30,835 nt of DNA from a virus, in the IMG/VR virus record IMGVR_UViG_3300015608_001846, positions 120,001 through 150,835 of that record; one strand, 5' to 3'. Shown here piece after piece: positions 1-30,835 of the stretch; positions within the stretch are counted from its first letter, which is position 1, and each line of letters opens with the position of its first letter. The position numbers and the translations under genes are program-made. Below the pieces are notes generated by a model that saw nothing but the letters and a program-made list of their open reading frames with translations, had not been told where the DNA came from and did no database searches.

Positions 1-1359
1 AAAGCAACATCCGAAGGTCGACGACGAGCATTCATCGATGGAGATATCGTCGCCTGGAATAAAGGTCTGACCAAGGACAATGATCCCAGGGTCGCAGCAG
101 CCGCCGTAGCTCAACAACAGCGATTCGAGGCTAAAGACGTTCGACCTTGGGCTGAAGGCAAGACTGAAGCGGGTGATGAATGCATTCTTCGAAAAAACAA
201 TGCACTTCGAAAAAGGTACGCCAAAGGAGAGCTTGAACCTTGGTACAAGGGAAAGACGATCGCGTCTGAACCTCGATTAGAAAAACTCTGGCAACACCGT
301 GATCCTGTCAAAGAGTATGCTGGTATCCGATGGACGGATGATGAGATCAGGGGAAAACTTGCAGGGAACATGCAACTCATCCTGCAAGACATCGACGGTT
401 ACAGAAATGATCGGATCCCGGCGCTGGTTGTCATGTGCAGGACGTGCAGTGAAACATCGAAGGTTTCACTTGTCTTTGCAAGAAACGATCGCTGCCATCG
501 ATGTAACCCTACGAGCTCGGCCGGTCAGAATCAGATCGCTGATTGGTTGGAATCACTGGGACTCAAGGTCGGTCGCAATGTCAAGGGCATCATCGGAAAT
601 CGTCAAGAGCTTGACGTATACGTTCCTTCGCACAAGCTAGCGATCGAATTCAATGGACTCTATTGGCACAATGAAGCAGGTGGTAAGGGACCCAAGTACC
701 ATCAAAATAAGTCGAATCGGTGCGCTGAACTCGGGATCACACTGCAACATGTCTTCGAAGACGAATGGTATGAACGACCTGACATCGTCAAATCGATGAT
801 CATGCATCGACTGTCAATGACACCCAAGCGTACTTCTGCTCGTAAGTGCAATCTTCGTGAGGCAACGATCGATGAACGTCGAACGTTCTTCGAAGCAAAT
901 CACATTGATGGTGATGTGCCTTCAACGAAGGCATGGTGCCTCGTCGACGAAGAAGAGATCGTAGCGTGTATCTCGATACGAAAACCGTTTCACAAATCAC
1001 AAAGCAAATTGATCGAAATCGCTAGGTTTTCGACCAAAACGTACACTTCTTGCGCCGGCGCCCTAAGCAGATTGATGCGATGTGTGGTTGCATACACTCT
1101 AGAACACAAGCTCGCGGGAGTGATGACGTACGTTGACACACGCTTCGGTAATCGAGGAAAAGGTTACTGTAGCGCAGGTATGACATTCACAAAAGAAACA
1201 GAACCTAGGTTCTGGTGGACAGACAACCACCATCGATTCAATCGATTCAAGTTTCGAGCCGACAGAGGGAGGCAGATGTCAGAAGCTCAGGTCGCAGAAG
1301 CTGCTGACGTCGTCAAGATCTGGGGTTGCAAGAATCTTGTGTACCAAATCAACGTCTGA
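1..1359 (+). CDS. Homing-endonuclease-like protein, 5'-partial (Vsr/DUF559-type PD-(D/E)xK-fold nuclease core plus uncharacterised C-terminal domain)
   Basis: Frame 1 is open from base 1 through the listed ATG at 370 to TGA 1357-1359, so the gene enters from the left edge. It has repeated W-x-[KE]-G-[LK]-T motifs (AWNKGLT, PWAEGKT, PWYKGKT) and a CRTC..CHRC zinc-ribbon pair. The nuclease signature ELDVYVPSHKLAIEFNGLYWHNE is shared with ORFs 11695-12612, 25950-26699 and 29440-30835. It is the only credible plus-strand gene and is convergent with all neighbours. Confidence 0.6.
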   Translation, partial: KATSEGRRRAFIDGDIVAWNKGLTKDNDPRVAAAAVAQQQRFEAKDVRPWAEGKTEAGDECILRKNNALRKRYAKGELEPWYKGKTIASEPRLEKLWQHRDPVKEYAGIRWTDDEIRGKLAGNMQLILQDIDGYRNDRIPALVVMCRTCSETSKVSLVFARNDRCHRCNPTSSAGQNQIADWLESLGLKVGRNVKGIIGNRQELDVYVPSHKLAIEFNGLYWHNEAGGKGPKYHQNKSNRCAELGITLQHVFEDEWYERPDIVKSMIMHRLSMTPKRTSARKCNLREATIDERRTFFEANHIDGDVPSTKAWCLVDEEEIVACISIRKPFHKSQSKLIEIARFSTKTYTSCAGALSRLMRCVVAYTLEHKLAGVMTYVDTRFGNRGKGYCSAGMTFTKETEPRFWWTDNHHRFNRFKFRADRGRQMSEAQVAEAADVVKIWGCKNLVYQINV

Positions 1360-3433: not shown

Positions 3434-6400
3434 TCAAGGAACCTGGTTCAGGTTGTTGGCGACGGCAAAGTCAAGCGACACATATTCGATCGTCTTTGTC
3501 GGTTGGACAAAGATCTTTCCGCGGAGGGTGTTGTTCTCGATGTCAGCCTGTGTCGTCGTCGATGAATCAATGATGACCTTGAACTTCTCGAGGCCCGCCA
3601 GCGCCTGGATCCTCTGCAGGCGTGGGGTGATGGCATTCGAGAACTTGGCCAGTGTTGCCTCTCGGTTAGGTTCAAAGGTGATCGTGTGCGCAATGTCACG
3701 GACCTGTCGACGAATGTCAATCAGCAACCGACGAACGTTGACACGGTCGAGGGCGCTAGCGCCGGCCTGCAACGTCTTCTGACCCCAGACGATGACGCCA
3801 CCCTTTGGGTTGGTGCCAGACGAAGCGTTGCCAGGGAACGACACGATCGGATTGATGTTCACGTCGTACAACGTGTCCATGTTTTCCTTTTTCAACTGCA
3901 CACGAGCCTCAAGCGATGTCTGCAATGAACCTCGTGTGAAGCCTGCAGGAGCGAACCACGGGTGACCCAGCTTGTCATTGAGTGCCATCGCACCCAAGAC
4001 AACGACCGAAGGCGGCACGTATACGTTGGTCTTGGTCGTCGGATCCTGGATCAAAACATCCGGGAAGTAAGCAGCTGCGAAGCTGGTGTTCAGTGCACGT
4101 TCACTAAACTGCTGTGCTGTCAACTGGACAGACGGCAGCTGCGTATCGCTGACCACATCGTCACCCTGGTTGTCAAGCTGTTCGATGTCCATCAGGTACA
4201 GTGCATCGAACCTCTCTTCGACGGCATCCACGACGGCATTTGACACGATGGGGTGCCGGATACCCGGGATGACGAGCAGCTGCACATCAGCATTGACGAC
4301 GTTCTTCATGACGTCAAGCGCCTTCGCGAAGGCCCTGACCGACGGTCCATCGTTGCGACCGCGGTTGCCGTCGTTCATGTCAGCGACGACAGCGTTGTTG
4401 TTGATCTCAGACTCGTCTTTGTTGAAGATGTTGACACCGTCTGAACCGCCTTGCATCAAGAAGCTGTACTTCAGGAAGCGACGATTTGACTGGTTGAAGT
4501 CGTCGACTGTCACCTTACGTGTCTTGTTGGTTTCATCCGCCACGATGTTACCATCACGGACGTAAGTTGCCTGGTGCCACATGGTCGAGTCAGCGATGCC
4601 CGCTGAACTTGTCACCACTTTGATGTTTTCAAGCGTAAAGACGTTGCGACAGAAACGATCAGAATCTAACACTGAGTTCTCGGCAGTGTCTGGCGTCCCC
4701 GCGTTGTCACCTACGACGAAGTCTTGCAATGTCTCAAAGTGCGACGGGAAATAACCCGCAAACGCAGCCAACGATTTGTTCTGCAGGGTGCTGGCATTTG
4801 GTGTCGTCAAACTGGTGATGTGTTCGAACTGCACGCCCCAGTACAGCAGTGGGTTGAACGTTAACTTGGCGCCTGAACCTTGTGTGATGTTGCTTCGTAG
4901 CGGCAGGGGCGCCTCGACAGCACGTTTCAAGACCAGAGACGCTGTGATTTGCGATGACGTTGGGCTCGTCAACGGAGCAGAACCCGACGTGACCAGGTGG
5001 AGCGGGCCGCGAACACCGAAAGGTAACGCTGTAGGGTCGACTGACATGTTGTCGACCTCTTGCGAGACCTCGACCCTGATGAGGTTGGAGTTGTTCGGAT
5101 AGTTGCCATCGATGACGATCTTTTGGCTAGATTCCGCCCGATCCCAATCAAAGAAGATGTTCGCATCACCGATCACTTTGGCGATGTAGCGATCAGAACG
5201 TGGGTCCAGCGACAGGCCACGCCACTGTTCCAGGGGCTTGACAGATCCATCGTTGTCATCCCACTCCCTAACGATCAAATCAAAGCTACCGTACAGGTTC
5301 GACGGATCTGACGACGGAGCGATGTTCTCGATCGACAGCTTGAACAGGATCGAGACACCTGACCCAGCGTCGATAGCGTGCAAACGAAACAAGTTGGTCG
5401 CTTCGCCACCGAAACGCTGTGAAATGACCCACGGCGATCGAGCGTGAGAGTAGCGATCAGTCCATCCTTCATAGTTAGGCACGTAGCTGTTTCCGGTGTT
5501 CCTGGCAAGCGATGCCGTTGTCAAGAACGCAGCTGCTTCAGCTCCTGACTTTGAACCGCTGACGCCACCTGCACCAGAGACAGCATGTACCAAACCAGAA
5601 CCGGTGACGACCGCTGTCGACGGATGAACATCCCAGAAGGCATGCAAGTAGTGTCCCGCTTGTTGGTACTTCAACGGATCGCGATTCATGACGTTCGCAA
5701 AGTAATTTGGAGACGTCATGTCAAACGATGCCGTGATCACATTGGGATACAACGAATCTATTCCCTGGTGACCGTTCAACAGCATGACAAAGTCTTGCTT
5801 GGCGACCTGTCCATCAAGCAGAACGACAGAACCGATAAGACTGCCGCTAGCTGTCGTGTCAGTAGCAACTAACGTCGATGCGGGAGCTGAATTGATACCC
5901 TCCGCCGACGATGATAGACGCAAGATAACACCCGAAGGTGCCATGATAACGCCTCGGATGATCGGCACTGCAGTATTGACGCCAGCTGTCACGCTGCCTT
6001 GGCCTTGAAGGCCAGCGGCGCTGAAGACAGTCGAACCTGCAGACTCTGACATGAAAGCGCCTAAGAAATAGGTTCGGCCAGAGACGCTGAGGCTACCAGA
6101 GTTTGCATACGGGTTGCCAACCAGAGTGCCATCGCTGTCACGTGGTTGGTCCTCACCGACAGTGAAACCGGCTCGAGCGACTGACCCATCGGTCGACCGT
6201 CGACGACCGTCACCGACACCCAGGACGCGCAAGAAGGTTACTGCAGATGCATTACGCATCCACTCAGACACCGCAAGCGGACCAAACTTCTTGCCATCAG
6301 TCGGACCAAACTTGGCGTAAAAATCATCGACCAGGCCAACAGTGACCGGAACATAGGCAGGTCCCTTCAACGACGTGCCGATGACACCAGCAGGAACGCC

Positions 6401-6481
6401 GACCGGTTCCTGAGCGACCGGACCAGAAAGGTCGATCTCCTTTGCAGTCACGCCCGCGGAACCGAACTTTAATTGCGCCAT
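3434..6481 (-). CDS. Tail sheath protein, gp18-like, paralog 1 (1015 aa)
   Basis: The N-terminus reads EIDLSGPV..VGVPAGVIGTSLKGPAYVPV. The C-terminus reads WFAPAGFTRG..INPIVSF..WGQKTL..ALDRVNVRRLLIDIRR..KFKVIIDSSTTTQADIENNTLRGKIFVQPTKTIEYVSLDFAV. This parallels the T4 gp18 C-terminal domain (SPAGYNRG..INPV..YGDKT..DRINVRRLFN..YRVVCDTTNNTPSVIDRNEF..IQPARSINYITLNFV, recalled from memory). Confidence 0.88.
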   Translation of the reverse strand: MAQLKFGSAGVTAKEIDLSGPVAQEPVGVPAGVIGTSLKGPAYVPVTVGLVDDFYAKFGPTDGKKFGPLAVSEWMRNASAVTFLRVLGVGDGRRRSTDGSVARAGFTVGEDQPRDSDGTLVGNPYANSGSLSVSGRTYFLGAFMSESAGSTVFSAAGLQGQGSVTAGVNTAVPIIRGVIMAPSGVILRLSSSAEGINSAPASTLVATDTTASGSLIGSVVLLDGQVAKQDFVMLLNGHQGIDSLYPNVITASFDMTSPNYFANVMNRDPLKYQQAGHYLHAFWDVHPSTAVVTGSGLVHAVSGAGGVSGSKSGAEAAAFLTTASLARNTGNSYVPNYEGWTDRYSHARSPWVISQRFGGEATNLFRLHAIDAGSGVSILFKLSIENIAPSSDPSNLYGSFDLIVREWDDNDGSVKPLEQWRGLSLDPRSDRYIAKVIGDANIFFDWDRAESSQKIVIDGNYPNNSNLIRVEVSQEVDNMSVDPTALPFGVRGPLHLVTSGSAPLTSPTSSQITASLVLKRAVEAPLPLRSNITQGSGAKLTFNPLLYWGVQFEHITSLTTPNASTLQNKSLAAFAGYFPSHFETLQDFVVGDNAGTPDTAENSVLDSDRFCRNVFTLENIKVVTSSAGIADSTMWHQATYVRDGNIVADETNKTRKVTVDDFNQSNRRFLKYSFLMQGGSDGVNIFNKDESEINNNAVVADMNDGNRGRNDGPSVRAFAKALDVMKNVVNADVQLLVIPGIRHPIVSNAVVDAVEERFDALYLMDIEQLDNQGDDVVSDTQLPSVQLTAQQFSERALNTSFAAAYFPDVLIQDPTTKTNVYVPPSVVVLGAMALNDKLGHPWFAPAGFTRGSLQTSLEARVQLKKENMDTLYDVNINPIVSFPGNASSGTNPKGGVIVWGQKTLQAGASALDRVNVRRLLIDIRRQVRDIAHTITFEPNREATLAKFSNAITPRLQRIQALAGLEKFKVIIDSSTTTQADIENNTLRGKIFVQPTKTIEYVSLDFAVANNLNQVP

Positions 6482-6618: not shown

Positions 6619-9600
6619 TCAGACGAAGGCGATGCCGCTGCTTGTGATGATGAAATCAAGCGAGATGAATTCAATGACACGTGTTGGAACGATGACGACG
6701 CGGCCGCGCATGCGGTTAGCTTCGACATCCTCTTGCGTGTTGTTGGTTTCATTACAGACGACGCGGAACGTTTCGATACCAGCTTGGGCCTGGATCAGGC
6801 CAAGCTGCTGAACAGAGTCGCTAACAAACTTGTTCCTGACAGCCGGAGTGTTTTGATCGAACGCCAGCTTGTTAGCGATGCTGATGATGATTCGCTTGAC
6901 CTCAAGCAGCAAACGCCTGACGTTGACTCGATCCAAGGCTGACTTTGCAATCTGCAACGTCTTTTGCCCGTAGATGACATAACCCAACTTAGGGAACGTC
7001 GCAATGGGATTAATCCGCGAATCCTGCAGCCGATCACGATCAGGTACGCTGAGCCTGACCTCCACGTTTGTCACAAAGTCCAACGCAGCACGGTTGAAAC
7101 CAGCCGGAGCAAACCATGGGTAGGCTACTCGATCGTTGAAGGCCAACGCACCTAGCGCCGCCACAGACGCTGGTACCTTGACTCGTCGACGATTCGTCTT
7201 ATCGTCGATGAAAACGTTCGGAAAGTACGTTCCTGCGTAGTTGTTGTCGATGGCACGTGTATCGACAGCCGCGGCTGTCTTGTCCACGTCTGGCCTGTTG
7301 GTCGAGTCGTCATACAACCGTGTCGCTGTATCATCATATGACGGGATGTCCATGACGTAGAAGGCTAGGCCGTAATCACGAACCCGCTGCATCGCATAGT
7401 CGGTGATGAACGTCTCACGGATGCCTGGGACCGCCAAAACGTTGACGTTGACAGCCATCGGTTCCGTCATGATGTCGATCGCAGTGCGGTATGACATGAC
7501 GTTTGAGTTGTTCTGCCCGGTTCCATTCATGTTTGTCAACATGCCAGGCGAAACGTAGCTGGGTTCCGCGCCGCCCAGGGCATCGAACGACGTTGCCTTA
7601 TCGTTCATCCTGCGAGCGTCACGGTCGAGGAAATTGAGACCGTCGTAACCGCCAAACATCATGTTGGTGAACTTGGCGTACGGCGAGAACCTGTTAAAAT
7701 CGGGTGCTGTTCCCTTTGCCAGTAGCGTAGCAAACGTAATACGGTTACCGATGACACTGGGAATTGTGTAGCTGGCGAGGTCGATGTTAGCATCACGAAC
7801 GTAGGCCGCCTCACGCATGTGATCATTGATCGTACCCGTCAATTGTGAGATCGCTGTGTTCGAGAAGGCAACCTTGGCCAGAGTAAACTTGTTGTCATTG
7901 AACTGATCAGCGCCAGCGCCGGTGACCAAGACATCGAGCTTTTTGATGCCCATGAACTTGGTGAACGATTCAAGCAGGCGGTTCTTCTCGGTCGTGAGGT
8001 TTGGGTTCAACGGCGTCGTGTTACGTTCGAACTTGATTCCCCAATACAGTTGGGTCGTCGCTAGCTCAGTCGGCCCAGGCTGGCCTTGCCACGTTGCTGT
8101 GTTCGGGATCTCGCCTTTCGTTACCTTGAACCTGAACGGAACAGGGGGAAGGATCGATCCTGACAAGGCTGATCCAGAACTGATGCCAAGGACACCTGCC
8201 AGCCTTGGGTTCGACGGGGCCACATCTGTCAACAGATCATTTGTCTTGATGACTTCGATCCCGCGGAAGCCAAACGGCAACGCAGTTGCCGGGACCAGTG
8301 CTCGCTCAACAGCATCTGTCATGACGATCCTGACAAGCTTTGAAACGTTGTTGTAACGACCGAAGGTGACGATGCGGCGCTCGGAAGCGATGGTTGCGTC
8401 AAAGTTATAGGTGACCTTGCGATCACCGATCAGCTTGGCAACGTAGTTCTCTGCGTACGGATTGAGCGAACAGTTGGGGTACGACTCCAGGACGACTGGG
8501 GACGCATCTGTGTCGTTCCAGTCTCGGATCTGAACCGTAAACGTTCCATACTGATCTGATTCATCAAGCGATGCCTTGATGTTGGTGATCGAGATCTTGT
8601 AGAGCCTGTTAGCAAACTCTCCGTCGTCGATCGCCTCAAAGCTGAAGAGATCGTACTCAGTGGCACCGAAAGGTTGTGAGATAAACTTCGTCGTCTTGGG
8701 AGCGGTGAACCTGGTATCGTACGCACCGAAGGCCTTTCGCATCTCCAAAGAAGTGTTACCGGAGGAGGTGCTTGCACGAGCTGAGCCTGACAACACAGCG
8801 ACGACCGTCGCCGTTGCCAACTCATTGTCGACAGCAAAGTCTCCGTAGAGCAGGTGCTGTTCCTGCACCAATCGATCTGGATCCGTGTTTAAGACCTTAC
8901 CGAAGTAATCGGCGCTCGACGGATCGAACGATGCTGTCAAGATCTTAACGCCAGGGTTGTTGTCAGTATTGACAAATCCGTTACCCAACGTCGACGAGAT
9001 GACAAGCTTGAACTTACCGTTCACTGTCGTCGCAACGTCATCTGGACCCGCTGCAGTGAAGGCGCCGACGGCAGACTCGTTACCATCTAACACCATCATT
9101 CGCGCGCCCGAGGCCATCATCACCAAGCCTCGAACCAAGTTGACAGCTGCACCAGCATAAGACCGGTTGTCAGTGAACAGCGGCATACCGTAGGCCTCGT
9201 TAGCCTGCAAGGTGTGCTTGGCAACCAACATTTGGACAGCACCGGTGTGTCGTCCACGCGAGTCGTGCGCGGCGATGTTACCATCAAGGTAAAACCCAGC
9301 ATACTTGACACGACCGGTGGCATCAGACGTTGCGATGTCAGTCTCAGTTGCGTTGCCGCCCGCTCCTAGAACACGCAAGAACGTCAATGCAGACCGATGT
9401 GTCAGGTACTCCTTGACAGCATACGGGCCTGGACGCTTTTGATCAAGGTCACCAAAGATTGCTGAAAATTCATCAAAATTTGCCACCGTGACTGGAACAA
9501 AGGCGGGACCTTTGTTAGAAGTACTGATGACGCCCGCGGGGGTGCCGACTGGTCCGGTCAAGCGCGGCGCCGACAGATCGATCTCACGCTGGTAGAAGTT

Positions 9601-9630
9601 GGGTGACCTAAAAGTCTGTTCTTGAGGCAT
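6619..9630 (-). CDS. Tail sheath protein, gp18-like, paralog 2 (1003 aa)
   Basis: AGGAGAG RBS lies 7-8 nt before the ATG. The N-terminus is EIDLSAPRLTGPVGTPAGVISTSNKGPAFVPV. The C-terminus reads WFAPAGFNRA..INPIATF..YGQKTL..ALDRVNVRRLLLEVKR..FRVVCNETNNTQEDVEANRMRGRVVIVPTRVIEFISLDFII. It is clearly paralogous to 3434-6481 along its full length. Confidence 0.88.
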   Translation of the reverse strand: MPQEQTFRSPNFYQREIDLSAPRLTGPVGTPAGVISTSNKGPAFVPVTVANFDEFSAIFGDLDQKRPGPYAVKEYLTHRSALTFLRVLGAGGNATETDIATSDATGRVKYAGFYLDGNIAAHDSRGRHTGAVQMLVAKHTLQANEAYGMPLFTDNRSYAGAAVNLVRGLVMMASGARMMVLDGNESAVGAFTAAGPDDVATTVNGKFKLVISSTLGNGFVNTDNNPGVKILTASFDPSSADYFGKVLNTDPDRLVQEQHLLYGDFAVDNELATATVVAVLSGSARASTSSGNTSLEMRKAFGAYDTRFTAPKTTKFISQPFGATEYDLFSFEAIDDGEFANRLYKISITNIKASLDESDQYGTFTVQIRDWNDTDASPVVLESYPNCSLNPYAENYVAKLIGDRKVTYNFDATIASERRIVTFGRYNNVSKLVRIVMTDAVERALVPATALPFGFRGIEVIKTNDLLTDVAPSNPRLAGVLGISSGSALSGSILPPVPFRFKVTKGEIPNTATWQGQPGPTELATTQLYWGIKFERNTTPLNPNLTTEKNRLLESFTKFMGIKKLDVLVTGAGADQFNDNKFTLAKVAFSNTAISQLTGTINDHMREAAYVRDANIDLASYTIPSVIGNRITFATLLAKGTAPDFNRFSPYAKFTNMMFGGYDGLNFLDRDARRMNDKATSFDALGGAEPSYVSPGMLTNMNGTGQNNSNVMSYRTAIDIMTEPMAVNVNVLAVPGIRETFITDYAMQRVRDYGLAFYVMDIPSYDDTATRLYDDSTNRPDVDKTAAAVDTRAIDNNYAGTYFPNVFIDDKTNRRRVKVPASVAALGALAFNDRVAYPWFAPAGFNRAALDFVTNVEVRLSVPDRDRLQDSRINPIATFPKLGYVIYGQKTLQIAKSALDRVNVRRLLLEVKRIIISIANKLAFDQNTPAVRNKFVSDSVQQLGLIQAQAGIETFRVVCNETNNTQEDVEANRMRGRVVIVPTRVIEFISLDFIITSSGIAFV

Positions 9631-11694: not shown

Positions 11695-12612
11695 TTAGGC
11701 ATCCGGATCATTCTTGAACTCGGCGTCAGTGATCCGAATGAAACGCAGGCCCTCGGCGTCAAACCAGGCATCCTGCTGACGATCGACGAGCCATTTTCGA
11801 TAGATCCCCATGTCACGGCGATGACCCGACATTCCTGACTCTCTGATCAATTCGATGGGTCGATCGAGGCCGTGCCAGTAGACGCCGTCGAATTGAACGT
11901 ACGTGTCGATGCTCTTGATGTGAAAATCGATCGACCAGCGCTTGTTCATGACGACCTGGCGTTCGACATCATCTTCACCAAATTTCTCGCAGAGCAACTC
12001 ATAGAACGCGTTCTCGGGTTTCGATTGAAACAACGTTCCCTCGCGGGCGCGCTTGTGCAGGACCTCAGCTGCGTGTTCAGCGTTCATCTGATGGTACGGC
12101 ACCCCGTACTTTGCGATCGTACCTGAGATCATTGCCTCGCGGACGTGGACGAGCTGCATCGGGTATTTGACGCCCCAGTTCTTGATCATCGTTGCCTGAC
12201 GTTTTTTGACGATGTCAGGATGTGTTTGAGGATGATCTCCAAAGTTAGCGCGCATCGTCTGCATTGCTTTCGTTCGAACTTCAATCGACGATGGACCCTG
12301 CTCAACACCGTACTTCTTTTTCCACGTAGAACGCATCTTTTGCTTGCATGGCTCAGCCGCGAATGGATTTTCAGCACCGTAGCGTTCTACACAGGTTGCA
12401 GCCCGTTGACGCTCAATCACACCACCATTCTTGTGAGCAATGCTCTTGCATGCCTCAGAACAAGTGTGCACTTTTGTGTGTTTAGCATCAGCTATTGAGC
12501 CACGTGTTTCCCACTCAATGCCGCACACATCACATCGCAAACAAAGAACATTGTGTTTGAAAGATCTACCCAAGCGATCAACTCGAACACCAACCTTCAC
12601 ATCATAAAGCAC
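11695..12612 (-). CDS. Free-standing homing-endonuclease-like protein (zinc motif + YG repeats + Vsr/PD-(D/E)xK-type nuclease core)
   Basis: GTG start. It has an N-terminal cysteine cluster CLRCDVCG..HTCSEAC and degenerate repeats RYGAENPF, KYGVEQGP, NWGVKYPM, KYGVPYHQ. The C-terminal core is SIDFHIKSIDTYVQFDGVYWHGLDR. It is inserted between the gp13-like and gp14-like genes. Confidence 0.65.
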   Translation of the reverse strand: MLYDVKVGVRVDRLGRSFKHNVLCLRCDVCGIEWETRGSIADAKHTKVHTCSEACKSIAHKNGGVIERQRAATCVERYGAENPFAAEPCKQKMRSTWKKKYGVEQGPSSIEVRTKAMQTMRANFGDHPQTHPDIVKKRQATMIKNWGVKYPMQLVHVREAMISGTIAKYGVPYHQMNAEHAAEVLHKRAREGTLFQSKPENAFYELLCEKFGEDDVERQVVMNKRWSIDFHIKSIDTYVQFDGVYWHGLDRPIELIRESGMSGHRRDMGIYRKWLVDRQQDAWFDAEGLRFIRITDAEFKNDPDA

Positions 12613-24533: not shown

Positions 24534-25136
24534 TTAAATATGCCTACGACGCAGGACGACCGGTTCTCCAGCCATCGGCTTGGTCAATTCCCAAGTTGGG
24601 TTGGCAACCAACCATTCATCGATCGCGGGTTTGACACCAGCATGGCGGTGTGAATCATCACGTGGTGTGCAACCCTTGACGTGTTCGTACCCTGGTCGCT
24701 CTGCGTACCACAGGTCACGCTCAGACCACTTACCATCATAATCATCAACGATGACAATGCCACCCGGCCGGACCAGGTCATCAAACAACGCAGCCTCCTG
24801 AACGACTGTCGGGTAGTTGTGATCACCGTCAAGCAATAACAGATCAAACTTGAGACCTTGCTGCACCAGCTTGGGCATCAGTTGAAGGCTGTTCTCTTCG
24901 ACGAGGTAGGCCTGTTGTTCAGCAGTCCGATCGAGATTGTCCAACACGATCCTGACCTGCTCCTGCACCATGACATCGACACCCAGCGCCAAGAAGGCCG
25001 GCTGTGACCTGACGAGGAAGGTGACCAGCGTCATGAACGACACCCCACGATCGACACCGATTTCGATCATTGTCGGTGGATGTTTTAAAGAATTGAGGTG
25101 TGCCTTAGCGTAACCCAAAAGTCCATGGTATGCCAC
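24534..25136 (-). CDS. Class I SAM-dependent methyltransferase (Methyltransf_24-like; substrate unknown)
   Basis: Motif I is MIEIGVDRGVS. LLLLDGDHNYPTV and GGIVIVDDY are typical of this small MTase group. The GTG start at 25136 is uncertain. Confidence 0.7.
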   Translation of the reverse strand: MAYHGLLGYAKAHLNSLKHPPTMIEIGVDRGVSFMTLVTFLVRSQPAFLALGVDVMVQEQVRIVLDNLDRTAEQQAYLVEENSLQLMPKLVQQGLKFDLLLLDGDHNYPTVVQEAALFDDLVRPGGIVIVDDYDGKWSERDLWYAERPGYEHVKGCTPRDDSHRHAGVKPAIDEWLVANPTWELTKPMAGEPVVLRRRHI

Positions 25137-28605: not shown

Positions 28606-29088
28606 TCACGTCTCTGGAAATGGCCACCATGACGGTGCTTGGGCCCGGGGATGCCAGCGAGCGAAGAGCGATTTCTCGGCGATGTAGTAGCAACGGTAGG
28701 CTGTGACCGGGTCCCCTGGGATGCGCCACTCGTTGGGCATCGCCTGGGCAAACCCAGCGGCACGGGTCCAATCGCCGGGAGAAGCGAGCTGGGACCAGAA
28801 CGCAGCCAGCTTCACCTCGGTCGCATGGATCCGGTGGTAACGCCGTGTGTACTCATCACACAGCCCCAAGAAGTGCTCCTGGAGCCAGGCCTGGTTGCCG
28901 AGTGAAGCTGCTGTCCACTTGACACAGGGGTGGTGTTGGTGCGTCGGAAGGTAGGGAACATCGACGCCACGTTTGTGGGCAACGGTGCACAGGATCTGTG
29001 CTGATTCCACGATCATCTTGACGACGTGCTTGTTGCACATCATCGTCGCTGCCTCACGAGGGTCGAGCGACAGGACAAAAATGTTCAT
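28606..29088 (-). CDS. Conserved hypothetical protein (family with N-terminal MNIFVLS.DP..AA....KHVVKM..ESAQIL signature)
   Basis: 160 aa. It carries the motifs PTHQHHPCVKW, CDEYTRRY and AYRCYYIAEK. I recall this signature from a family widespread in phages, large DNA viruses and bacteria, sometimes annotated as pyrimidine-dimer-glycosylase-like. I cannot verify this here. Confidence 0.6.
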   Translation of the reverse strand: MNIFVLSLDPREAATMMCNKHVVKMIVESAQILCTVAHKRGVDVPYLPTHQHHPCVKWTAASLGNQAWLQEHFLGLCDEYTRRYHRIHATEVKLAAFWSQLASPGDWTRAAGFAQAMPNEWRIPGDPVTAYRCYYIAEKSLFARWHPRAQAPSWWPFPET

Positions 29089-29439: not shown

Positions 29440-30835
29440 CTACGTTCGACGGAAAACGACCAATGACTCAGCCTTGGGCTTCCTGCCCTTCGCACGAGCA
29501 AAGTGATCGACCTTCACGGGTAGGGTGACATCTTCCACGTGCTCAAAGCCGACCGACCGACCCGCTGCGATGATAACGCTTCGCAGGTCTTCATCGATGT
29601 TAATGACGCAGAACCTCGACGGTCGAAGCCCAACATGGGCGGCTGCCAACGTGGGGACGAGGTAGTTCTTTGTCCACGAATCGATGTCGGGATGATCTCG
29701 CCAACATTGGCCTGGTTCATCAACATACCTCTCTTTGTTGAAGTAAGGAGGTGACGTAAACACCATGTCCAACGACTCGGGTTTTGGTCGATAGTTCTCT
29801 GAACCCATCGTCAACAGATTGACACTGATCTCTGGTAGGACCTTGACGAGCTCCTCCGCCAACCTCACAGCGTCATCGCACATCATCATTGAAGGATCTG
29901 TACCCACGTACGTGCCTCGAGGGTACTGAGCAGCAAAGCCCAACAGTCGTGCAGAGAACCCGATCGATGGATCCCAAACAACTGGCCGTTCAACGTCTCC
30001 TAAAAACGTTCGATAAACGTCACATGCCAGGCTTGGGTTGAACCACGACACTGCCTTGCGTTGAACGATAAAACCTCGCCTGATCTCTTTGAAAGAAACA
30101 TCAAAAGTCTCATGTGCAGTAACCTTGTCACCCGATGACAAGGCATACTCATACGGCATGCTGTTGTTGAGCCCAAGTCGATACCTCAACACGCTTCGAA
30201 GGGCGCGGTCGTCATCAAATGCCCGACGGGGTCCGTCATCAACGTCCCAAAACGAACGAACGAATGATTTAAGCCACAGCGACGCATGTCGTCCAGCTGA
30301 TGACGACCTTAGGTCATCGAGGGCCTCTCGAAGAACTCCCGTTTGTGGCATGTAGAACCACCCGTATGTTGACACGTAAGCCCGGAGAAAGAACTCTAGG
30401 GCCGGCAAGAGCTGGTCTTCGACCCAAGTCGCATCCGCAGTCAGCAACGTTTCACGAGCGATGATGACATCGTCATCCGAAAGACGACGACGATCATCCT
30501 TCAACGTCTTCCCGCTGACAATCGCCTTATACGATCGACAGATCAGTTCATCGAGCGTCTTGCAACCTGACAGATCGCTGTCTTCTTTGAACCGAATGAG
30601 CGTCATCGACCTAGACGCTACGAGTGAATCCTTGTCGAGGTCATTTGCCATCGTGATCAATTGGTCGACTGTGAAATCTCGCGTTCTATCGAGACCGTGC
30701 CAATAGACACCATCGATCTCAATCAAGGCTTGTTGTGTGGGTAACCACACATCCACACACATGGTTCTTTCTGTAAAGTTGAACCACTTGCTAGCCTCCG
30801 CGTCGGGAAAATTCGTCCTTATTTGTTCATAGGCT
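29440..30835 (-). CDS. Fusion protein, 5'-partial: Vsr/PD-(D/E)xK-type nuclease domain + amino-type (N6-A or N4-C) DNA methyltransferase domain
   Basis: The frame stays open upstream of the listed ATG 30762 to the window edge (..AYEQIRTNFPDAEASKWFNFTERT-MCVDVW..). The nuclease core is VDVWLPTQQALIEIDGVYWHGLDR (30685-30723). The MTase motif I-like segment is VVWDPSIGFSARLLGF (~29938-29979) and motif IV is TSPPYF (SPPY at 29743-29754). There is no stop between the domains. Confidence 0.75.
   Translation of the reverse strand, partial: AYEQIRTNFPDAEASKWFNFTERTMCVDVWLPTQQALIEIDGVYWHGLDRTRDFTVDQLITMANDLDKDSLVASRSMTLIRFKEDSDLSGCKTLDELICRSYKAIVSGKTLKDDRRRLSDDDVIIARETLLTADATWVEDQLLPALEFFLRAYVSTYGWFYMPQTGVLREALDDLRSSSAGRHASLWLKSFVRSFWDVDDGPRRAFDDDRALRSVLRYRLGLNNSMPYEYALSSGDKVTAHETFDVSFKEIRRGFIVQRKAVSWFNPSLACDVYRTFLGDVERPVVWDPSIGFSARLLGFAAQYPRGTYVGTDPSMMMCDDAVRLAEELVKVLPEISVNLLTMGSENYRPKPESLDMVFTSPPYFNKERYVDEPGQCWRDHPDIDSWTKNYLVPTLAAAHVGLRPSRFCVINIDEDLRSVIIAAGRSVGFEHVEDVTLPVKVDHFARAKGRKPKAESLVVFRRT

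Follow-up and report, generated by a model that had tools for sequence, protein, structure and literature searches.

Homing endonucleases are normally tolerated by hiding in introns, inteins and intergenic gaps. The EDxHD enzymes, represented by I-Bth0305I (PDB 3R3P) and by Hef of T4-related phages, are phage-borne, occur as free-standing copies, and carry a Vsr-like catalytic domain with a composite E-D-x-H-D set of residues (PMC3239194) behind an N-terminal modular DNA-binding region. Here we describe a gene that resembles them in its catalytic domain and residues, in being phage-borne, in having free-standing copies and in a putative modular DNA-binding region ahead of the nuclease, and that, unlike the known enzymes, encodes endonuclease and DNA methyltransferase on a single polypeptide. 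It lies in a window of 30,835 nt (the whole stretch of DNA analysed; positions 120,001-150,835 of IMG/VR record IMGVR_UViG_3300015608_001846) from an uncultured T4-like phage. The fusion further differs from the EDxHD enzymes in that it is not associated with an intron or intein, and in that a C2H2 zinc finger and helical repeats, for which DNA binding is predicted, replace the NUMOD2/helix-turn-helix (HTH) repeats of I-Bth0305I. A second point of comparison is segD of phage T4, a GIY-YIG homing endonuclease gene (HEG) located directly after gene 23, between genes 23 and 24. The fusion gene occupies the same slot directly 3' of the major capsid gene (g23), whereas segD belongs to another nuclease family and is a separate gene on the opposite strand that is not fused to its neighbour. 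We propose, with a probability of about 0.62, that the fusion is a g23-linked EDxHD homing endonuclease merged in frame with a resident phage methylase; most likely it reflects the loss of a gene boundary at a HEG hotspot and not a new kind of restriction enzyme.

On the minus strand, a single frame runs uninterrupted from the window edge (30835) to a TAG stop at 29440-29442 and encodes 464 residues within the window. A search of a large protein collection returned the complete product, a protein of 660 residues (P0001) that is 100% identical to the window translation. Its gene is at 367-2349 of the parent 50,971-bp Logan contig (L001), which reaches 953 nt past the window. An earlier reading of the window, made from its letters without database searches (the sequence-only reading), had described one unbroken frame, open at the edge, that joins two domains, and both the window frame and full-length P0001 agree with it. 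The same reading had taken the N-terminus to be missing. This is true within the window, but the first 196 codons, recovered upstream on the parent contig, encode the zinc finger and helical repeats, so the nuclease is not a bare domain but the third element of a complete HEG-like module (Table 1). An AlphaFold2 model of the 660 residues (54 homologues) has a mean predicted local distance difference test score (pLDDT) of 89.6 and a predicted template modelling score (pTM) of 0.70, with pLDDT >90 at the junction. The beta-hairpin that follows the nuclease also forms the C-terminal end of free-standing versions of the endonuclease (L012 and L013 sequences).

The full order of zinc finger, helical repeats, nuclease and methylase is present in 105 of the 246 homologues we collected, 136 of which have the EDxHD nuclease domain, and in a dozen independent contigs stop-to-stop frames cover both nuclease and methylase. 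The many independent fused homologues and the spanning frames exclude an assembly artefact or a hidden stop between the domains. An internal start that would yield a methylase-only product is likewise excluded, the consensus having no conserved methionine at the junction, and several apparent variants with a nuclease-only N-terminus turned out to be late start-codon calls (the frame of P0007 runs upstream into a zinc finger). Pfam at its gathering threshold does not name the fusion protein, NCBIfam covers neither the fusion nor its variants nor the HEGs of the window, and megablast of the region against cultured phages returned no match.

The nuclease block of the fusion (VDVWLPTQQALIEIDGVYWHGLDR) has a core that a motif scan also finds in the window genes at 11695-12612 (minus) and 370-1359 (plus), as expected from the sequence-only reading, which had regarded this core as common to the HEG-like genes of the window. 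Modelled alone, the domain reaches a pLDDT of 97 and adopts an alpha-beta-beta-beta-alpha-beta core. By hhalign, the nuclease profile aligns with the sequence of I-Bth0305I alone (gp29 of Bacillus phage 0305phi8-36, EF583821 161249-162049) at 86.5% (E 4.5e-6); against a profile of I-Bth0305I and five Hef-like domains the figure is 97.5% (E 8.6e-12, 83 columns). The alignment pairs E194 with E170, D224 with D196, D237 with N208, H242 with H213, D261 with D222 and K264 with K225 of I-Bth0305I, and the first five pairs are the composite EDxHD positions of that enzyme as defined by Taylor et al., who describe the roles of the residues (PMC3239194). Counted among the 136 nuclease-bearing homologues, each of these five is kept in at least 95% of the aligned sequences (E194 in 108/110, D224 in 125/127, D237 in 132/134, H242 in 131/134 and D261 in 130/135). 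In the N-terminal region of the fusion, the NUMOD Pfam models have no match and the zinc finger (C2H2) matches are weak. Judged by these alignments, the nuclease is a member of the EDxHD family of homing endonucleases (I-Bth0305I/Hef); the earlier label of a 'Vsr-type' nuclease was right as to the fold, which is Vsr-related, and imprecise as to the family. The nonamer DGVYWHGLD is, as had been noticed, the same in the fusion and in the free-standing HEG at 11695-12612, and the 4 of 27 nucleotides that differ are all synonymous third positions. However, the description of the two as close paralogs was overstated, their nuclease domains being 32% identical over 56 residues (E 4e-6). The nonamer is the catalytic motif of the family, with the family-wide consensus xDGxYWHGLDR, and neither its identity nor the synonymous differences reveal anything particular to these two copies, contrary to what had been concluded from them.

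The C-terminal half is an SPPY amino-methyltransferase of gamma-like motif order, as had been proposed from the sequence, with motif I ahead of motif IV by 73 residues where about 70 had been estimated. Motifs I-III are near-invariant in 229 homologues (D484-P-S-x-G488-F-[GS]-x-R492, Y505-x-G-x-[DE]509-P510 and G540-S-E542), and in the same set motif IV keeps T in 228, S in 215, the second P in 229 and Y in 220. The residues that bind S-adenosylmethionine (AdoMet), whose absence the sequence-only reading had named as a reason to doubt the domain, are therefore present on alignment. With phage and viral N4-cytosine and N6-adenine amino-methyltransferases (Pfam N6_N4_Mtase; for example NVP2058O_092 of Vibrio phage 2.058.O and N4-cytosine methylases of Pithovirus) the domain has in common a DPxxGxG-type motif I, an acidic motif II, an (S/D/N)PPY motif IV, beyond which the two also resemble each other as aligned to 2zie, and structural similarity over ~300 columns. 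It differs in that motif I stands upstream of motif IV, which is a permuted order relative to the beta-class Pfam model, and because of this the match to PF01555 (N6_N4_Mtase) is local and restricted to the motif IV-VIII half. The window protein scores 19.6 bits against this model, below the gathering cut-off of 26.7 (profile positions 2-80 of 221), and at E<=0.1 the model is matched by 41 of 54 homologues (best E 2e-9). Foldseek comparison of the full model with the PDB returned the class I RNA and protein methylases Trm11, Bud23, TrmI and PrmC (E ~1e-8); among viral models, the best matches are unnamed relatives, followed by giant-virus proteins annotated as N4-cytosine DNA methylases, which align over ~300 columns with the helical N-domain included. 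FTSPPYF fits the PROSITE N4 pattern, [LIVMF]-T-S-P-P-[FY], and a distant homologue from a Vibrio phage bears the annotation IPR017985, an N4 signature. Our best guess is that the methylase targets DNA and produces N4-methylcytosine. The helical N-domain, matched by its hidden Markov model (HMM) in all core-bearing homologues, ends in a SWFxP...A..(I/V)Y segment ahead of motif I with the invariant residues present, and it is a candidate target-recognition domain (TRD).

These identities bear on two explanations that the sequence-only reading had put forward. The first was a mismatch-repair partnership on the model of dcm-vsr in E. coli, in which the nuclease would nick T:G mismatches arising from a deaminated methylated base. 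The Vsr-related fold and catalytic residues are shared with that system, as is the linkage to a DNA methylase, which is genetic in E. coli and physical here. However, Vsr is a stand-alone enzyme of ~150 residues whose partner is a C5-cytosine methylase, whereas the fusion nuclease carries a zinc-finger/helical extension of ~190 residues, aligns best with homing enzymes and is joined to an FTSPPY amino-methylase (N4C/N6A type). The problem that Vsr solves, deamination of 5-methylcytosine to thymine, does not arise with an amino-methylase. The Pfam Vsr model is matched by only 6 of 54 homologues (best E 0.0019), the same nuclease is found free-standing with no methylase domain on the following DNA, and the linkage is explained by adjacency to g23. 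Given the amino-methylase partner and the putative DNA-binding modules of homing type, we regard a Vsr-type repair role as highly improbable.

The second explanation was a single-chain restriction-modification (R-M) enzyme, similar to Type IIG/IIC, whose nuclease and methylase would use a common recognition domain. An N-terminal nuclease of PD-(D/E)xK type followed on one chain by a gamma-order amino-methylase would fit it, and this is the order of MmeI-like enzymes. Unlike those enzymes, the fusion has no TRD after the methylase, since the protein ends ~100 residues past motif IV, and its nuclease comes with a predicted DNA-binding module of its own; the 50 best Foldseek PDB matches of the full model include no Type IIG enzyme. 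The halves are also separable in nature and found in other combinations, and since either half can be found by itself, we regard an obligate single-chain R-M enzyme as very unlikely.

The genomic position of the fusion, which we regard as decisive, points instead to a homing endonuclease. Upstream of it on the parent contig, an open reading frame (ORF) ends as the C-terminus of a T4-type major capsid protein gp23 (closing with RSDFYGTVTVLDMNII and a stop) and is followed by a terminator-like hairpin, a 125-nt spacer and then the fusion gene. The related 180-kb contig L004 has the gene order portal, protease, gp23, fusion, and then gp13, gp15 and sheath. Elsewhere the same place is filled differently. 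In L012, g23 is followed by the same zinc finger-helical-EDxHD protein in free-standing form (371 residues), and the ~3 kb beyond it is without a methylase domain. L013 has this protein (377 residues) together with a separate, overlapping gene for a zinc finger-methylase. A Hef-like endonuclease precedes a zinc finger-methylase after g23 in L006 and L015 and a core-only methylase in L008, where g23 is off the short contig, and in L011 g23 is followed by an ORF for a zinc finger-helical-TnsA-like endonuclease and then by a zinc finger-EDxHD-methylase. An IMG/VR scan added 19 loci. Domain mapping then yielded 17 distinct loci that carry g23 (23 entries), and in each of them one or more HEG-like ORFs or domains separate g23 from the methylase core or, where the methylase is absent, directly follow g23. 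The EDxHD endonuclease thus behaves as a mobile element, free-standing in the slot 3' of g23 with or without a methylase, and in other phages the same slot holds HEGs of other types. On contigs that are not T4-like, an HNH nuclease is fused C-terminally to the methylase (L035) or encoded by a separate adjacent ORF (L036), and in cultured phages (Vibrio, Staphylococcus, Bacteroides) no nuclease is annotated next to distant relatives of the methylase.

From the context of the g23 slot and the coexistence of free-standing and fused states, we conclude that a g23-linked HEG has probably become fused to a methylase. The sequence-only reading had listed a HEG that captured, or inserted in frame into, a phage methylase among its options, and it is this option that the g23 slot, the free-standing copies, the other HEGs and T4 segD favour. 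The first of the two units would be an EDxHD HEG of the free-standing type, in which the nuclease follows a C2H2 zinc finger and helical repeats predicted to bind DNA. The second would be a DNA amino-methyltransferase resident in the phage, with gamma-like order, FTSPPY as its motif IV and a probable N4-cytosine target. The slot directly 3' of g23 would serve as a HEG hotspot in T4-like phages in which the EDxHD endonuclease resides. In many lineages the frame of the HEG would then have merged with the methylase gene next downstream, here giving one polypeptide of 660 residues that is presumably expressed from a separate transcription unit beyond the terminator of g23. Regarding function, we infer that the N-terminal module would bind and cut a long target near the g23/methylase junction of co-infecting relatives that lack the module, and that recombinational repair would copy the endonuclease in and carry the linked methylase along. 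The C-terminal module would methylate phage DNA, for anti-restriction or self-marking, and the two activities would be independent of each other. Fused, adjacent, nuclease-deleted (zinc finger-only) and re-invaded states all exist, as is expected of a cycle of HEG gain, decay and loss.

A family-wide census places the fusion among many relatives. Searching 1.84 billion cluster representatives with the 350-residue methylase core alone gave 2,365 relatives at E<=0.001, 94 of them at <1e-30. Locally built domain HMMs were mapped on 89 family representatives at 50% identity: 36 consist of the core only, 20 have the complete zinc finger-helical-EDxHD-core order, 11 are shorter EDxHD forms (some being late start calls), seven have only a zinc finger before the core, and HNH nucleases are N-terminal in six and C-terminal in nine. 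The HNH forms, with NUMOD4 and HNH_3 (plus HTH) at either end of the methylase, are confirmed by Pfam. In the neighbour-joining tree built from the core, one large clade holds the EDxHD forms, interspersed with zinc finger-only and core-only forms, and HNH forms lie elsewhere. On these placements, nuclease modules have joined this methylase family at least three times. A search with the N-terminal 307 residues found seven proteins, none of them fused, and is not usable for a ratio of free-standing to fused forms.

Several results weigh against a homing endonuclease that merely travels with its neighbour. Fused forms dominate the census, with EDxHD on 31/89 and HNH on 15/89 representatives. An 'empty site', with g23 directly joined by a nuclease-free methylase, is found in 0/17 distinct g23-bearing loci. 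Within the EDxHD clade the two parts have diverged equally (mean pairwise identity of 40-47% for the endonuclease part and 43% for the core), and the correlation of endonuclease and core distances (r 0.32-0.57) is comparable with that between the halves of the core itself (0.48). The nuclease active site is almost never degenerate among homologues. Frequent fusion, equal divergence and an intact nuclease site are explained by a bifunctional protein long maintained by selection no less well than by a selfish passenger, and leave room for functional coupling. The family assignment has its own counter-evidence. HMMER searches of PDB sequences with the protein, the full alignment and the nuclease profile recovered neither Vsr nor I-Bth0305I/3R3P, and returned only a weak match to the beta-class methylase 2zie along with chance matches. 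Foldseek comparison of the nuclease model with the PDB gave sub-threshold PD-(D/E)xK matches, of which 1vsr was the most probable (0.85, E 0.085); 1cw0 had a TMq of 0.53, and 3R3P was not among the 50 best matches. Because these direct searches were weak, EDxHD membership was tested by the profile-profile alignment with I-Bth0305I given above.

Such coupling would take the form of a module for methylation-protected homing or R-M-like competition, in which the methylase marks the carrier genome at or near the target of the endonuclease, the nuclease cuts only unmethylated DNA of co-infecting phages or the host, and fusion secures co-inheritance and stoichiometry. At all T4-like loci examined the methylase core comes after a nuclease, which is either fused to it or encoded next to it; EDxHD and HNH nucleases, whose folds are unrelated, have been attached to one and the same methylase family, at either end; strong purifying selection acts on both active sites while the halves co-diverge; and the AlphaFold2 model is confident across the junction. 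Frequent fusion, co-divergence, intact active sites and the lack of an empty g23-methylase junction keep such coupling alive. However, the free-standing endonuclease of L012, with no methylase domain in the DNA downstream, weakens the idea that methylation confers immunity to cleavage, and the methylase family occurs in cultured phages without an annotated nuclease. The nuclease has its own zinc-finger/helical region of predicted DNA binding, typical of homing enzymes with long sites, and does not share the recognition domain of the methylase. Moreover, the EDxHD association is explained by adjacency to g23 and not by the methylase alone, the T4 segD slot holding a HEG without any methylase. 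We therefore consider a coupled enzyme unlikely. The broader proposition that EDxHD, Hef-like and HNH nucleases together with this methylase family constitute a phage-to-phage competition cassette and not an accident of gene order, the methylase marking the carrier and a long-site nuclease destroying or converting unmarked co-infecting relatives, seems to us similarly doubtful. If true, it would represent a HEG/R-M hybrid in which methylation replaces target-site polymorphism as the means of self-immunity.

Domestication is a further alternative. Here the nuclease would no longer home, and would work for the phage as a component of the methylase, for instance as a DNA-targeting or clamp module or as a late-expressed nickase of host or competitor DNA. 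The fusion is old, its parts being only 40-47% identical across homologues yet collinear, and zinc finger-only derivatives (P0117, P0091, L013) keep the finger on the methylase, to which it may be useful. The retained catalytic residues argue against a pure binding role, and the dynamics of the locus, with extra HEGs, split and re-fused forms and interspersed nuclease-deleted forms, resemble an active cycle of HEG gain and loss. On balance domestication appears improbable, and the merger of a g23-linked homing endonuclease with a resident methylase remains the reading we prefer.

Further features of the g23 slot were observed. Between the g23 hairpin and the fusion start (L001 307-352, ~500 nt past the right edge of the window), GTTTCTAGG occurs three times exactly, with spacings of 17 and 20 nt; at least four matches in the locus were seen in 0/200 shuffles, and partial GTTTCTA copies lie at the same place in L012 and L006. 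By analogy with the autoregulation of I-TevI, the repeats could be an operator or promoter element. A scan for sigma-70 promoters upstream of the fusion gene found nothing above chance. The zinc-finger module (C2H2 plus CxCGC...GHN) heads not only the EDxHD endonuclease but also the TnsA-like endonuclease, the methylase and small ORFs, and in L013 it opens the endonuclease as well as the neighbouring methylase. This arrangement in L013 suggests partial duplication, or re-invasion of a nuclease-deleted allele.

Table 1 Features of the fusion protein (residues of the 660-residue product) and of neighbouring or related genes; nucleotide positions refer to the window unless a contig is named
Feature	Residues or motif	Position (nt)	Strand	Remarks
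Fusion gene, C-terminal part		29440..30835	minus	464 codons + stop of the 660-residue protein; translation
Zinc-finger region	about 1-82; CxxC...HxxxxH and CxCGC...GHN			C2H2 matches weak
Helical repeats	about 88-188			Run of long helices, AlphaFold2 model
EDxHD nuclease	189-300	30523..30835	minus	Vsr-like PD-(D/E)xK; window holds 197-300 only
Catalytic residue	E194	outside window
Catalytic residue	D224	30751-30753
Catalytic residues	D237/H242	in 30688-30720
Catalytic residue	D261	30640-30642
Catalytic residue	K264	30631-30633
Beta-hairpin + linker	301-317	30472..30522	minus	Conserved; modelled strands 299-302 and 305-309, pLDDT >90
Helical N-domain of methylase core	318-470	30013..30471	minus	~150 residues; local HMM 'Nhel'
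Class I AdoMet (Rossmann-type) methyltransferase	471-660	29443..30012	minus	Motifs, local Pfam N6_N4_Mtase match, Foldseek PDB + BFVD
Motif I	482-495; VWDPSIGFSARLLG	29938-29979	minus
Motif II	YVGTDP
Motif III	GSE
Motif IV	555-561; FTSPPYF	29740-29760	minus
Free-standing HEG-like gene		11695..12612	minus	DUF7487 helical region + C-terminal EDxHD nuclease; distant relative of fusion nuclease
Hef-like homing endonuclease		370..1359	plus	N-terminal EDxHD/Vsr-like nuclease; phrog_3339 E 1.7e-71
GIY-YIG + HTH (sigma-70 region 4-like) protein, 259 residues		22878..23657	minus	Resembles Seg-like homing endonuclease
Two tandem tail-sheath paralogues		3434..6481 and 6619..9630	minus	~1,000 residues each; both phrog_23
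Second, unrelated methyltransferase		24534..25136	minus	Methyltransf_24 / CmcI-like; E 8.6e-14
Small ORF		28606..29088	minus	Weak Pyr_excise (T4 endonuclease V-like) match; two genes downstream of fusion
Zinc finger-headed proteins		L013 6001-8740; L006 11954-12586 and 15142-16077

The 31-kb window holds at least four genes or domains of homing-endonuclease type. The free-standing HEG at 11695-12612 sits between homologues of gp13 and gp14, and the syntenic site in L004 is a 51-nt gap without the HEG; this presence and absence indicates that HEGs are gained or lost in this phage group. The gene at 370-1359 matches, by tblastn, genes annotated as 'Hef-like homing endonuclease', and it is the sole long plus-strand gene noted in the window, the other long genes being on the minus strand. 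Members of the same Hef-like family in L006 and L015 have a C-terminal domain that matches Pfam 'Mom' (PF25680, E 4.5e-8, above threshold); Hef-like enzymes thus join a Vsr-like nuclease to a fold related to a DNA-modification enzyme. In L004 (1-2871) an intein (Intein_splicing, Pfam) lies within the T4-type portal protein, and a faint intein match is seen in the prohead protease of L011 (1-689), which we take as further evidence that these phages are heavily colonised by selfish elements. One of the two sheath paralogues is 73% identical to the sheath of L004 and the other 33%; duplication of a contractile sheath is unusual. The second methyltransferase lies ~4.3 kb downstream of the fusion, and at the same relative place in L004.

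Each element is of a known kind: the homing endonuclease is of EDxHD type, its partner is an amino-methylase, and the site beside g23 is a HEG hotspot. Our literature searches found no paper on a methylase that shares its reading frame with a homing endonuclease of EDxHD or HNH type, consistent with the earlier statement that the architecture had not been described, yet it is abundant in metagenomes. At this locus an entire EDxHD endonuclease is translated within a conserved phage enzyme, a state that has persisted, without loss of either active site, among homologues sharing only ~40-55% identity. The fused, split, nuclease-deleted and re-invaded forms at one capsid-adjoining site make up a natural series, which bears on (i) how selfish nucleases merge with, and vanish from, host genes, (ii) whether a linked methylase is cargo or self-protection for a homing element, and (iii) the target-site preferences of the little-studied EDxHD family. 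In practical terms, biochemical work could draw on the family for numerous diverged zinc-finger/EDxHD nucleases and for a methylase that is permuted and probably acts on N4-cytosine.

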